Below are positions 52,979 to 54,093 of a stretch of DNA of 64,000 nt, piece by piece. This DNA is from a virus: IMG/VR virus record IMGVR_UViG_3300045988_161192, positions 1-64,000 of that record; one strand, 5' to 3'. Below the pieces are notes generated by a model. That model was not told the origin of the DNA and did not search any database. It saw only the letters and a program-made list of their open reading frames with translations. The translations under genes were made by a program, and so were the position numbers. Positions within the stretch are counted from its first letter, which is position 1, and each line of letters starts with the position of its first letter.

Positions 52979-53007
52979 TTGAGATATTTGAGAAATTGTG
53001 ATAGAAT
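52979..53007 (+). promoter_or_regulatory. promoter TTGAGA-17-TGtgaTAGAAT upstream of the DHH gene
   Basis: TTGAGA 52979-84, 17-nt spacer, TAGAAT 53002-07 with TGTG extension; 144-nt leader follows. Confidence 0.35.
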
Positions 53008-53151
53008 AAAAGTGTAATAAGAAAAATATACTTGGTCGAGGGTTATATATTATTACAGGGGTTGCTAGACAGATTGGCTTCATGCTCTTCTTACTCCTCT
53101 TTAGTCCTTGAGATAAAAGTCTAGCTTATTTTGTAATATGGAGGTGAGAAA

Positions 53152-54093
53152 ATGGTTCATGTTTTGACGCATAATGACCTTGATGGATACGCCGCAGGTT
53201 ATATCGTCAGTGACCATTTTAGTAGCCAGGAGAAAACCTTTACAATTTTGAACTATGACAAAGAACCGGATTTGTCTAAAATCAAGTCTGGAGATATTGT
53301 CACAATCACAGACTACTCATTGACGAATGCCCAATATCGTGAAATTCTTAAGAGAGTGGGAGATGATGGACACTTGATTTGGTGTGACCATCACATTACT
53401 GCTATTGAGAGATATAACGAGGACGAGAATTTAGCTGTCGATGGTATTAGAAGCACAAAATATTGTGGAGCAATTCTTACTTGGTGCTACTTTAATGATT
53501 TGGACACAGATGATATAGAGAAAACACCATACGACGAATTCATTATGAAAATTCCACATTGGCTTCGATTGGTAGACGCTTGGGACACATGGAAACTCGA
53601 CTCAAAATACCGTGAAAAAGCTGAGGCATTGAACTTAGCTGTCCAAAATCGTTTATCGATGGACTTGATGGGTGAATTAGAAGAAAGCTATCGAGACTAT
53701 GTTGAAATCGGTAGAAGTTATAGGGATTTCAGAAATCAGTGGTCAAAAGCTTTAAGAGACCAGTATTTATTCTACAAAGTTCAAAGAGGAGACAACTTTG
53801 GGGTTGACCGTATGATAACTTTAGCCGTCTTAAATGTTGGAAATGCAAACAGTGAATTCTTTGGAGATATAATCAACAAAGTCGATGTTTGTGTTACAAT
53901 GTGTTTTGATGGAAAGAAATGGAAAGTTAGTTTATATTCTAACAAATCCGACATTGATTGTTCTTATGCAGCCAAAATCTTTGGTGGCGGTGGTCACAAA
54001 GGAGCAGCTGGATGTTATTTTGAACAATTAACTCCACCTACTTTTATTCAAGAAGAAGGTGAAATTATAAAACTAGTAAAGGAGAAAGATTAG
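53152..54093 (+). CDS. DHH-DHHA1 family phosphoesterase (NrnA / c-di-NMP phosphodiesterase-like)
   Basis: N-terminal HNDLDGYAAG (DHH motif I), WCDHHIT (DHH motif), C-terminal FGGGGHKGAAG (DHHA1 GGGH motif); RBS GGAGGTGAG. Confidence 0.65.
   Translation: MVHVLTHNDLDGYAAGYIVSDHFSSQEKTFTILNYDKEPDLSKIKSGDIVTITDYSLTNAQYREILKRVGDDGHLIWCDHHITAIERYNEDENLAVDGIRSTKYCGAILTWCYFNDLDTDDIEKTPYDEFIMKIPHWLRLVDAWDTWKLDSKYREKAEALNLAVQNRLSMDLMGELEESYRDYVEIGRSYRDFRNQWSKALRDQYLFYKVQRGDNFGVDRMITLAVLNVGNANSEFFGDIINKVDVCVTMCFDGKKWKVSLYSNKSDIDCSYAAKIFGGGGHKGAAGCYFEQLTPPTFIQEEGEIIKLVKEKD

Follow-up and report, generated by a model that had tools for sequence, protein, structure and literature searches.

The open reading frame at 53152-54093 (+ strand, 313 aa) of the 64,000-nt viral stretch that we analysed, hereafter the window, encodes a DHH/DHHA1 phosphodiesterase. 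Our best overall explanation of the locus, held tentatively, is that this enzyme is filed with NrnB, acts on short oligonucleotides, and is expressed from a promoter of its own through a two-hairpin leader that senses no ligand. As we picture it, the product would be a metal-dependent, two-domain enzyme of a viral branch filed with NrnB (COG2404), in which a long helix would link the catalytic DHH lobe to a substrate-binding DHHA1 lobe. Most likely it would act as an exonuclease that hydrolyses linear dinucleotides or very short oligonucleotides to mononucleotides, and its task during infection would be to remove and recycle the products of RNA breakdown; it may also act on cyclic oligonucleotides. 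Transcription would start from a host-type promoter, and the ~140 nt of 5' untranslated region would fold into two stem-loops. The first of these (H1) may serve as an mRNA stabiliser or as a contact site for a protein or for RNA polymerase, and the second (H2), together with the U-tract that follows it, may serve as a leaky intrinsic terminator or as a structural barrier before a strong ribosome-binding site.

Motifs, fold and family of the DHH/DHHA1 protein

Both the DHH and the DHHA1 signatures claimed for this reading frame in an earlier note were present, and the active site is intact. WCDHH occupies aa 77-81 (nt 53380-53394) and GGGGHKGAAG aa 278-287 (nt 53983-54012), and the catalytic motifs comprise DxD at aa 9-11, D54, DHH at aa 79-81, D145 and GGGH at aa 279-282. 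We collected 121 homologues of the protein, and residues D9, D11, D54, D79-H80-H81, D145 and G279-G-G-H282 were invariant in 82 homologues. This invariance, together with a profile-search match to PHROG 4771, 'DHH phosphoesterase' (E 1.6e-30), places the enzyme motifs clearly beyond chance. The Pfam DHHA1 score of the window protein was 21.8 bits, under the cut-off of 25.9, and the Pfam DHH domain gave no match in it at E<=0.01, while many of the homologues carry PF01368 or PF02272. Among relatives, codon positions 1, 2 and 3 were 90.5, 94.5 and 78.4% identical, respectively, a pattern that indicates purifying selection on the gene.

The AlphaFold2 model was confident (pLDDT 93.6) and presented a two-lobed alpha/beta fold, with a DHH lobe and a DHHA1 lobe joined by a 36-residue linker helix (aa 170-205). 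The best solved matches were 6mtz (an uncharacterised DHH protein of H. pylori), RecJ-Cdc45, PggH, NrnA and DhhP, and the best viral fold matches were DHH phosphohydrolases of jumbo phages and giant viruses, among them the 'oligoribonuclease NrnB' of AR9. These viral enzymes (PHROG 4771), exemplified by those of the jumbo phages PhiEaH1, RP12, PaBG and AR9 and of the giant viruses Klosneuvirus and Marseillevirus, share with the window protein the two-domain fold, the ordered inter-lobe helix and the catalytic motifs, and they are its best structural matches (TM-score 0.55-0.72, E to 5e-19). However, the window protein is just 13-22% identical to the DHH-annotated viral matches, and its gene differs from theirs in lying in the late morphogenesis/lysis region of a mid-sized siphophage-like genome and in having its own promoter and leader. 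The protein is an ordinary member of a known enzyme family, of a type that is common in phages and giant viruses.

The grouping as 'NrnA / GdpP / Pde2-type', which had been proposed, proved too specific. NrnA, Pde2, CnpB(CdnP) and DhhP share the superfamily and the catalytic motifs with the window protein, and the DHHA1 region around GGGH aligns with that of DhhP (E 7.8e-9) and TmPDE (1.4e-6); however, identity to this group is 12-16%, the whole-chain TM-score is 0.35-0.47, and the linker is a long helix in the window protein but a flexible loop in these enzymes. The RxRxR motif, which in the DHHA1 domain of NrnA binds the substrate backbone and the 5' phosphate (PMC9779919), is absent, and the aligned segment reads K258-V-S-L-Y262-S-N264. 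Here VSLYSNK (aa 259-265) occupies the place of the Arg-rich motif of NrnA-type enzymes, with Tyr262, conserved in at least 90% of homologues, standing for the conserved Arg of the DHHA1 strand motif, so that substrate binding may differ from that of known nanoRNases. The domains typical of GdpP are absent too: the window protein has no N-terminal transmembrane helices, PAS or degenerate GGDEF domains, its DHH motif I begins at residue 9 and it carries no extra domains.

Nearest to the window protein are the DHH phosphohydrolases of viruses and the NrnB-like (COG2404) proteins, whose linker is helical, and JGI assigns COG2404 NrnB to two of the homologues (P0019 and P0036). NrnB proteins combine DHH and GGGH with a long helical linker between the domains (PMC10570053, PMC12709177), and those of B. 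subtilis (YngD) and H. pylori have in common with the window protein these motifs, the long alpha-helical linker, the lack of an RxRxR motif and the build of a stand-alone enzyme of ~300-400 aa. Identity is ~15%, and the likeness is one of motifs, linker and build. The window protein ends 31 residues past GGGH, which is compatible only with the short NrnB-B/C-like forms, and, unlike NrnB clade A, it has neither the C-terminal extension (>100 aa) nor the basic RRKR patch. It also differs from 6mtz, its best solved sequence match, in having Tyr where 6mtz keeps the Arg of the V-S-L-R strand motif. NrnB proteins degrade short RNAs from the 3' end (PMC12709177, PMC10570053). Identity to every characterised enzyme is only 12-18%, and the substrate of the window enzyme cannot be read from its sequence.

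Genomic setting and role of the enzyme

The position of the DHH gene is constant in every relative, down to 45% identity, and the gene is a fixed late-region member in a family of uncultured, siphophage-like genomes of ~65 kb. There DHH comes after the genes for portal and MuF-like protein, the variable cargo and the tRNAs, and before those for scaffold, holin and endolysin, which places it in the late structural/lysis region and away from the nucleotide-metabolism genes of the phage (thymidylate kinase, NTP pyrophosphohydrolase and a thymidylate-synthase-like protein). That the phage puts resources into nucleotide metabolism favours our main reading of the enzyme, as do the constant position and the purifying selection; the location apart from the nucleotide-metabolism genes speaks against it. 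The downstream gene (54091..54670, + strand) encodes a DUF4355 scaffolding-like protein whose ATG, at 54095, lies one base past the DHH stop (TAG T ATG). The two genes are therefore co-transcribed and probably translationally coupled, and their arrangement is the same in all relatives. Our terminator scan of the window found no + strand terminator-like sites between the DHH and endolysin genes. Neither megablast at the DNA level nor tblastn matched this uncultured phage to anything in the INPHARED collection of phages, and a search for a host through genomes found no close prophage copies; the best genomic match was 53% identical and lay on a 4.4-kb MAG contig, the others being <=30% identical over the full length.

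Upstream of the DHH gene lie tRNA-Pro (52590-52665) and tRNA-Met (52766-52842). The adjacency to tRNA genes that had been pointed out is thus real, but it is a matter of synteny within this phage group and not a property of the enzyme family. No tRNA gene was found within 4 kb of DHH in 47 of the 53 more distant phage loci (L008-L060), and in the remaining six the nearest one was ~2-3.5 kb away. A functional link between DHH and tRNAs was rejected, given that distant homologues have no tRNAs nearby. In a guilt-by-association analysis of ~70 distant phage loci, no consistent DHH neighbour emerged.

The alternative that survives best, which we regard as unlikely but deserving attention, is that the enzyme is a dedicated counter-defence phosphodiesterase directed against the cGAMP or cyclic trinucleotides of CBASS, the cyclic oligoadenylates of type III CRISPR, or c-di-AMP, with the host-type promoter giving expression from the first minutes of infection despite the late-gene location. 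As an idea it is plausible and already published for related viral enzymes (PMC7824862; bioRxiv 10.64898/2026.07.21.739742). The fold and active site are compatible with it, and among viral proteins it is the pan-viral DHH group, in which the linker helix is ordered, that comes closest to the window protein. For the jumbo-phage DHH enzymes a counter-defence role has been predicted (PMC7824862), and some viral DHH enzymes degrade 3'3'-cGAMP and other messengers; among those assayed in a preprint, mimivirus R106 and one phage enzyme block 3'3'-cGAMP signalling (bioRxiv 10.64898/2026.07.21.739742), a possible precedent for the window protein. Further points of agreement are the SigA-type promoter, the adjoining variable cargo slot, where ADP-ribosyltransferase toxin domains occur in relatives, and a gene for the Thoeris inhibitor Tad3 next to DHH in two of the ~70 distant phage loci. 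However, the neighbours of DHH in distant phages are otherwise heterogeneous and provide no consistent anti-defence context, and throughout the phage group DHH keeps one place, as a core gene and not as a variable accessory; it shares its transcript with the scaffold gene, to which its translation is apparently coupled. In addition, no cleavage of c-di-AMP is known from the NrnB-type proteins that have been assayed (PMC12709177, PMC10570053).

The two readings differ in what they would mean. As a cyclic-nucleotide hydrolase, the enzyme would extend the viral DHH phosphodiesterases described of late by a conserved counter-defence gene from Gram-positive-type phages of medium size, whereas as a nanoRNase it would document that many phages carry their own last-step RNA-recycling enzyme. 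Current understanding stays unchanged unless experiments bring a surprise.

We consider it improbable that the protein is a minimal RecJ-like exonuclease acting on ssDNA (or RNA) in recombination, replication or the degradation of host nucleic acid. Its N-terminal domain matches archaeal RecJ profiles (NCBIfam E 1e-8; PDB RecJ2 E 1.4e-8) and the long inter-domain helix is a feature of the RecJ core, but the NCBIfam RecJ_archaeal score is 34.5 bits, far under the family cut-off of 360, and the RecJ profile TIGR00644 was not matched by the window protein. With 313 aa, the protein lacks the OB-fold, CID and C-terminal domains of RecJ and archaeal RecJ-Cdc45 (GAN), and any other DNA-binding extension. 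The DHH gene also lies outside the replication module of the phage, which already encodes an exonuclease and a Sak4-type annealing protein.

Promoter, hairpins and conservation of the leader

The tRNA transcription unit upstream ends in a terminator-like hairpin, ACTGAGGTAACTCAGT, with a T-run (52933..52958, + strand; consensus scan), which has a stability of ~-10 kcal/mol and is conserved in L001, L002, L003, L089, L091 and L093. It is followed by a sigma-70/SigA-type promoter at 52979..53007 (+ strand), with a -35 hexamer TTGAGA, a 17-nt spacer and an extended -10 element TGaTAGAAT. This site agrees with the consensus at 10 of 12 positions in addition to the TG element and was the sole match to the pattern in the window; position 52979, which the earlier note had taken as the start of the feature, is its -35 hexamer. 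All close relatives retain the two hexamers on either side of a diverging spacer. On this pattern the DHH gene has its own promoter, with a predicted transcription start at ~53011-53014, and the length of 144 nt given for the leader is correct if counting begins after the -10 hexamer and stops at the ATG.

Hairpin H1 (53013..53057, + strand), predicted by RNAalifold as GUAAUAA...AUAUAC-UUGGUCGAGG-GUUAUAU...UUAUUAC, lies right at the start of the transcript as predicted and contains an invariant -10-like TATACT (53027-53032). Conservation of H1 exceeded the level in the coding sequence, 36 of its 46 columns being invariant in seven relatives (P 6.5e-5) as compared with only 50% of the third codon positions of the same seven. 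The loop is invariant among relatives. Of the cells in the two helix segments, 100% and 97.5% were paired, a change on both sides was seen in a single pair, and stabilities were -7.4 to -10.2 kcal/mol.

Hairpin H2 (53064..53125, + strand) corresponds to the inverted repeat described earlier, which we found as reported: GCTAGAC (53064-53070) and GTCTAGC (53119-53125) form a 7-bp stem (GCUAGAC/GUCUAGC) around 48 nt, and a U-rich tract, TTATTTTGTAATAT (53126..53139, + strand), lies directly 3' of it. In relatives H2 is a compact hairpin of 33-37 nt (9+5 bp) followed by UUAUUUUGU. Two stem pairs are changed on both sides with respect to the relatives (C-G to G-C and U-A to A-U, in the covariance-model alignment), and the apical part is freely variable, with 37 nt in the window and 11 in relatives, a net difference of 26 nt. 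The stability of H2 is -14.8 kcal/mol in the window and -11.5 to -14.0 kcal/mol in relatives, and the hairpin is as stable as the neighbouring tRNA-operon terminator. It escaped a simple scan for terminators in the window and in L003 and L088, and the 48-nt interior of the window H2 is poor for an intrinsic terminator. The Shine-Dalgarno site GGAGGTGA (53140..53147, + strand), with a GGAGG core that ends 7 nt before the ATG, is invariant in all relatives; the tail made up of the U-tract, this site and the ATG is 95% identical in relatives, with 25 of 29 columns invariant (P 4.5e-5), and so, like H1, clearly exceeds the conservation of synonymous sites.

Taken by itself, the leader does not stand out. 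When the leader was dinucleotide-shuffled, 40% of the shuffles contained a perfect 7-bp repeat (loop 3-60 nt), as did 39% of the natural 144-nt segments of this sequence; the repeat plus a T-tract occurred in 6.7% of leader shuffles, and the leader fold (-30.7 kcal/mol) was no more stable than those of shuffles (-31.2 kcal/mol, z +0.15). The description as a 'structured leader' was therefore borne out in part: the repeat alone and the fold are at chance level, but the hairpins are conserved in close relatives. About 10 relatives (82-98% protein identity) keep the promoter hexamers, H1, H2 with its U-tract and the strong Shine-Dalgarno site. Pairing in the leaders of relatives reached 97.4% of cells, compared with 42-55% in slid controls. 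Three pairs of the leader were changed on both sides, a count that 8 of 500 shuffles reach; this covariation is weak, the ~9 sequences compared are close relatives, and counts of this kind may come about in the absence of any structure. It is comparison with relatives, and only this, that makes H2 a credible hairpin.

A covariance model of the leader matched only a narrow clade (relatives of at least 82% protein identity), and the element was found solely directly before DHH genes. The conservation in homologous phages that the earlier note had raised as a check thus holds for close relatives and ends below 82% identity, in collections where further leader variants from relatives of 70-85% identity are missing. 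In more distant relatives the DHH gene is preceded by a tRNA gene or by a pseudoknotted RNA of unrelated kind, and sister subclades have no promoter or terminator here, their tRNA genes running straight into DHH.

Possible functions of the leader

The most likely role of the H1-H2 leader is that of a stabiliser plus leaky terminator, and nothing indicates that it senses a ligand. Promoter-proximal leader terminators and 5' stem-loop mRNA stabilisers are found in low-GC Gram-positive bacteria and phages, and lambda PR'-tR' yields the 6S RNA. Like these systems, the window leader has a constitutive-looking promoter, a stem-loop a few nucleotides from the predicted 5' end, and a hairpin with a U-tract before the first gene of an operon that includes lysis genes. 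It differs from lambda PR'-tR' and the Gram-positive leaders in being confined to one narrow phage clade, and no regulator, pause site or alternative structure was identified here. The leader is a compact, conserved and clade-specific unit of promoter, hairpins and putative terminator. A plain stabiliser would not account for the invariant loop of H1.

There is a slim chance that the leader acts as a late-gene gate of the lambda PR'-tR'/Q kind, producing a short terminated H1-H2 RNA until a promoter-proximally loaded phage factor drives read-through into DHH, scaffold, holin and endolysin. The arrangement is consistent with this, with a strong host-type promoter and then a hairpin and U-tract after ~115-125 nt. 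Our scan showed no further + strand terminator-like site up to the 3' end of the endolysin gene, and the tRNA unit is closed off by a terminator, which suggests that transcription enters the scaffold-lysis genes mainly from this promoter. The invariant TATACT lies in the initially transcribed region, and the invariant loop of H1 suggests sequence-specific recognition. However, three PHROG searches found no Q-like or other antiterminator or late regulator among 30 ORFs, the annotation of which is incomplete, the sister subclades manage without promoter and terminator, and H2 of the window looks like a weak terminator. A slightly slimmer chance attaches to a broader proposal, in which H1-H2 would be a new factor- or ligand-responsive gate on a constitutive promoter, placed before a signal-degrading DHH enzyme and the scaffold-holin-endolysin operon, and the RNAs of sister phages would be alternative solutions. 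The RNAs at the same spot in sister phages are a pseudoknotted RNA, tRNAs and tRNA-like elements.

We give little credence to the leader as a separate small-RNA gene beside the tRNA genes, made up of a promoter, a ~120-nt RNA and a terminator, with DHH expressed only by read-through. The layout of promoter, two hairpins and U-tract, the conservation of H1 above the neutral level and the location in the small-RNA (tRNA) region of the phage would suit such a gene, but the element occurs nowhere other than directly before DHH genes, its U-tract leads straight into the invariant Shine-Dalgarno site, no Rfam family matches it and no target complementarity was identified.

The least probable reading, with an almost negligible likelihood, is the riboswitch or ligand-responsive attenuator (for c-di-AMP, nanoRNA or another nucleotide) first proposed for this leader: a hairpin with a U-tract ahead of a gene, conservation in close relatives, a nucleotide-metabolising gene as a logical target and a different, covariation-supported pseudoknotted RNA at the same place in a sister subclade speak for it, but the leader has a plain build of two hairpins, lacking both pseudoknots and multi-helix junctions, the interior of H2 can be replaced and can differ by 26 nt in length, the element is absent beyond the narrow clade, and none of the 4227 families of Rfam 15, ydaO/c-di-AMP included, matched it at E<=10. 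The riboswitch part of the earlier proposal is therefore not sustained, while a role as attenuator or terminator is possible. Within 52400-53400, the same search at E<=10 returned two tRNAs as the only significant matches, the rest being chance-level snoRNA and archaeal sRNA hits, and in L006/L007 and L176-L179 only tRNAs were above threshold, L177 having a sub-threshold tmRNA-like match (23.5 bits as compared with a gathering score of 84).

Comparison of the relatives revealed no alternative (antiterminator) pairing that the leader conserves. The candidate three-segment switch GTAATAA / TTATTAC / GTAATA was rejected, since its third segment is mutated in L088, which breaks the 2:3 pairing, and nothing covaries; a pairing read by eye, between AAAAGUG at the leader 5' end and the 5' arm of H2, is lost in L001 and L088. 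The tRNA model gave no support for H1 as a decayed class-II tRNA D-arm. Homology of the window leader with the pseudoknotted RNA of the sister clade was suspected from the sequence UUGGU(A)CGAG, which is common to these two RNAs, but covariance models lent it no support in either direction.

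Organization of the DHH locus

The window is a phage segment with genes on one strand and a G+C content of about 35%, carrying a replication module (helicase, ligase, exonuclease, Sak4-type annealing protein, DNA polymerase, thymidylate kinase, NTP pyrophosphohydrolase, thymidylate-synthase-like protein and primase) and genes for morphogenesis and lysis (terminase, SPP1-type portal, MuF-like protein, major head protein, Dp-1-type holin and amidase/SH3 endolysin). The locus under study, as read from the sequence, spans 52979-54093. Genes for tRNA-Pro and tRNA-Met lie 5' of a terminator-like hairpin with a T-run (hairpin at 52933-52948), followed by a promoter-like site (TTGAGA-17 nt-TGaTAGAAT, 52979-53007), a 144-nt leader reaching to the ATG at 53152, and the DHH ORF of 313 codons (53152-54093, plus strand); the ATG of a DUF4355 scaffold-like gene begins one base past the DHH stop codon. 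The inverted repeat, the U-rich tract and both protein motifs were found exactly where the earlier note had placed them.

All relatives whose flanking DNA could be retrieved (45-98% identity) had the DHH gene at the identical position. Their genes run from portal through MuF-like protein, variable slot, and tRNA genes or non-coding RNA to DHH and scaffold-like protein; next come, in relatives that are more distant, a 171-aa protein, and in all of them a zinc-ribbon protein, holin and endolysin. The variable cargo slot, which separates the gene of the MuF-like head protein from the tRNA/DHH region, is occupied in the window by a 598-aa orphan ORF (50505-52301) with no Pfam or PHROG match, and in two relatives by ADP-ribosyltransferase toxin domains (ART, ADPrib_exo_Tox; L176 1861-2535 and L179 1897-2592), recalling MuF-associated polymorphic toxins. 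Around DHH genes of some 70 distant phage loci the neighbours were mixed (sigma factors, helicases, YopX, dCTP deaminase), with Tad3, a Thoeris inhibitor, adjoining two and APS kinase one of the distant loci L008-L080. As 47 of the 53 distant loci scanned had no tRNA gene within 4 kb, the tRNA adjacency is local synteny. The sole close match in the genome collection (53% identity) was a 4.4-kb contig assigned to a 'Candidatus Gastranaerophilales' MAG (L096, CALURG010000094.1); since it holds the phage-type arrangement of tRNA, pseudoknot RNA and DHH gene, it is probably a mis-binned phage contig and not evidence for the host.

The tRNA unit has a strong promoter (TTTACA-17 nt-TGaTATAAT, 11 of 12 consensus matches, within 52470-52590) and a conserved leader terminating in the hairpin GCTGGGGTAG...TACCCTAGC. 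Four relatives without tRNA genes (L085, L086, L087 and L090, at ~3740-3840) keep this promoter, leader and hairpin with T-run directly 5' of the DHH promoter. The acceptor stem of the window tRNA-Met (CAT, 52766-52842), whose sequence opens with CGCGG, is paired in a non-standard way at positions 1 and 3; bacterial initiator tRNAs typically have a C1xA72 mismatch, and a cleaner form is present in the close relative L001 (...CCGCAACCA).

Elsewhere in the window, at 37571-39807, a gene for thymidylate kinase is clustered with one for a MazG-like NTP pyrophosphohydrolase and one whose product resembles thymidylate synthase in its C-terminal half alone. The cluster might hint at a pyrimidine pathway that is modified. 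Of the window ORFs tested, none was seen to encode a ribonucleotide reductase.

The leader in the window and its close relatives

Taken by itself, the 7-bp inverted repeat of the leader is unremarkable: repeats of this kind occurred in 40% of shuffles that preserve dinucleotides and in 39% of natural windows of 144 nt (in 6.7% of shuffles when a T-tract was required too), and the minimum free energy of the leader equalled that of its shuffles (z +0.15). Comparison with relatives revealed that an arrangement of promoter and two hairpins, H1 (53013-53057) and H2 (53064-53125, built on the repeat), is common to at least 11 loci whose DHH proteins are 82-98% identical. Across these loci the promoter has retained its two hexamers and its TG element, with drift in the spacer; H1 starts a few nucleotides from the predicted transcription start, and a short variable linker leads to H2, behind which come the U-tract and a GGAGGUGA that does not vary. 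With third codon positions in these genes as the yardstick (78% identical, 50% invariant), conservation was raised in H1 (91% identity, 36 of 46 columns invariant, P 6.5e-5), in the U-tract with the Shine-Dalgarno site (95%, 25 of 29, P 4.5e-5) and in H2 (87%, 25 of 36, P 0.013), while the linker was neutral-like (77%, 5 of 9, P 0.49).

RNAalifold predicted both hairpins. In a nine-sequence alignment 97.4% of cells paired, against 42-55% with the partners slid, and three pairs were altered on both sides, a number equalled in 8 of 500 shuffles; the covariation score was 0.166 versus 0.127, and 2 of 500 shuffles came up to it. These figures lend the two hairpins modest support, as the sequences are few and closely related and the alignment was fitted to the model.

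In the relatives H2 is a compact hairpin of 33-37 nt (-11.5 to -14 kcal/mol), at least as stable as the adjoining terminator of the tRNA operon. The window H2 is a derived form, with two stem pairs swapped on both sides (C-G to G-C, U-A to A-U) and, by the covariance model, an apex of 37 nt in place of the 11-nt apical part of the relatives. The compact form is retained in L001, whose protein is 98% identical. The window leader is 26 nt longer than those of the relatives, and MAFFT placed the extra bases at 53067-53092, in the H2 region. On the minus strand of the H2 interior (53071-53118) an RBS-like AAAGAGGAG precedes the ATG of a short ORF (35 aa by eye), and the plus strand holds a 9-codon ORF; both are probably accidental, since neither is present in relatives.

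A host-type promoter would open a 5' UTR with a 5'-terminal stem-loop, followed by a hairpin with U-tract and a strong Shine-Dalgarno site, an anatomy that fits a leader whose most likely role is to protect the mRNA and partly terminate transcription. Stem-loops that stabilize mRNA from its 5' end are found in low-GC Gram-positive bacteria. It is improbable that the leader acts as a gate of the lambda PR'/Q type. In favour of such a gate, both the loop of H1 and a -10-like TATACT within H1 are invariant, the upstream unit closes with a terminator, and no further plus-strand terminator-like site was found up to the end of the endolysin gene, so that transcription of the scaffold-lysis genes may enter through the DHH promoter. 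Against it, no antiterminator was recognized among the ORFs tested, the annotation being incomplete. That the leader is a small RNA gene of its own is somewhat less probable still. The riboswitch suggested in the earlier note is very unlikely and found no support, since no Rfam family matched the window leader even at E<=10, the leader of the window clade showed neither a multi-helix junction nor a pseudoknot nor any alternative pairing that is conserved, the sole candidate pairing switch is broken in the relative L088, and the H2 interior is freely replaceable across relatives.

RNA elements preceding DHH genes in other relatives

The observation made in the earlier note is real, and the leader is an uncharacterized element of a narrow clade. 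A conserved 18-20-mer of H1 occurred only 5' of DHH genes in IMG/VR and the JGI metagenomes, and once in the window; the leader covariance model scored 93-150 bits on the close clade and nothing significant on 80 other DHH loci (best E 0.32). The earlier note had made its reading depend on conserved structure in homologous phages, and the near clade keeps that structure while farther relatives are without it.

Some stable RNA structure always lies just 5' of the DHH ribosome-binding site. In relatives of 45-67% identity, three alternative elements precede the start codon: a tRNA gene ending 30-100 nt upstream; a tRNA-like element with T-arm and acceptor end (...GGTTCGATTCC...CTCGACC; L176 ~2790-2880, L177 ~2580-2620, L178 ~2620-2660, L179 ~2900-2965), uncalled by ARAGORN and the Rfam tRNA model; and, in a subclade of 52-55% identity, an unrelated RNA, some 190 nt long, that follows the last tRNA gene and ends before DHH begins. 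Among the tRNA-like elements, that at L177 2591-2652 gave a weak, sub-threshold match to part of a tmRNA model (E 9e-4, 23.5 bits versus a gathering score of 84).

The RNA of the 52-55% subclade (L006 and L007 3847-3972, L226 2849-2973, L228 1179-1303, L096 2111-2236) has three helices, two of which cross as a pseudoknot, and its single-stranded stretches CAAAUCAACUA, CGAGAAGU and AGUUUCGUUGUU do not vary. Both sides had changed in 14 of its 21 pairs, which none of 500 shuffles attained. With no detectable relation to the window leader, and no Rfam match at E<=0.1 for L006 or L007, it is a candidate new structured RNA.

Class and likely activity of the DHH enzyme

Pfam gave the DHH protein a DHHA1 match under the cut-off (21.8 bits) and no DHH match, and the PHROG 'DHH phosphoesterase' matched residues 3-304 (E 1.6e-30). 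Homologues numbered 121 in a large protein database, at least 429 in IMG/VR and 153 among one-per-species genomes. An 82-sequence alignment showed invariant metal- or substrate-binding residues D9, D11, D54, D79-H80-H81, D145 and G279-G-G-H282, and identity among close relatives of 90.5/94.5/78.4% at codon positions 1/2/3 indicates purifying selection on the gene. A confident AlphaFold2 model (pLDDT 93.6) predicted two alpha/beta lobes connected by a helix (residues 170-205); its top matches among viral models were 'DHH phosphohydrolases' of jumbo phages and giant viruses (TM-score 0.55-0.72), including the AR9 'oligoribonuclease NrnB'.

The earlier note had assigned the correct superfamily, but a viral or NrnB-like enzyme fits better than the NrnA- or GdpP-like one it proposed. 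The RxRxR motif typical of NrnA, which binds the substrate backbone (PMC9779919), is missing, since the aligned segment is K-V-S-L-Y-S-N-K, with a conserved Tyr where Arg is expected; a profile alignment sets this segment against V-S-L-R-A-N of the solved H. pylori protein 6mtz and L-R-S of DhhP. The membrane, PAS and GGDEF domains of GdpP are also lacking. DHH with GGGH, a long helical linker and a stand-alone form, traits of NrnB/COG2404 (PMC10570053, PMC12709177), all fit, and JGI labels two homologues NrnB/COG2404, although the C-terminal extension of NrnB clade A is missing. The enzyme is a new member of an already known, recently studied viral family. Viral DHH enzymes have been described from all virus kingdoms, and an ordered helix between the lobes distinguishes two of their five groups (bioRxiv 10.64898/2026.07.21.739742).

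Its most likely activity, which we propose tentatively, is hydrolysis of short oligonucleotides or dinucleotides. A dedicated cyclic-nucleotide hydrolase is a distinctly less likely reading. Mimivirus R106 and one phage DHH enzyme block 3'3'-cGAMP signalling (bioRxiv 10.64898/2026.07.21.739742), and a comparative study had earlier predicted that DHH enzymes of jumbo phages act against signalling (PMC7824862), so that the same idea for this enzyme is reasonable but not new. The cargo slot adjoining the DHH region leaves room for anti-defence, but a fixed core position under purifying selection is more in keeping with housekeeping during infection than with an anti-defence gene that can be swapped. 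A RecJ-like exonuclease is improbable, as the additional RecJ domains are missing and RecJ profiles scored far under their cut-offs. One homologue, P0075 (350 aa, on a 1.2-kb contig), matched an anaerobic ribonucleotide reductase domain (PF13597).
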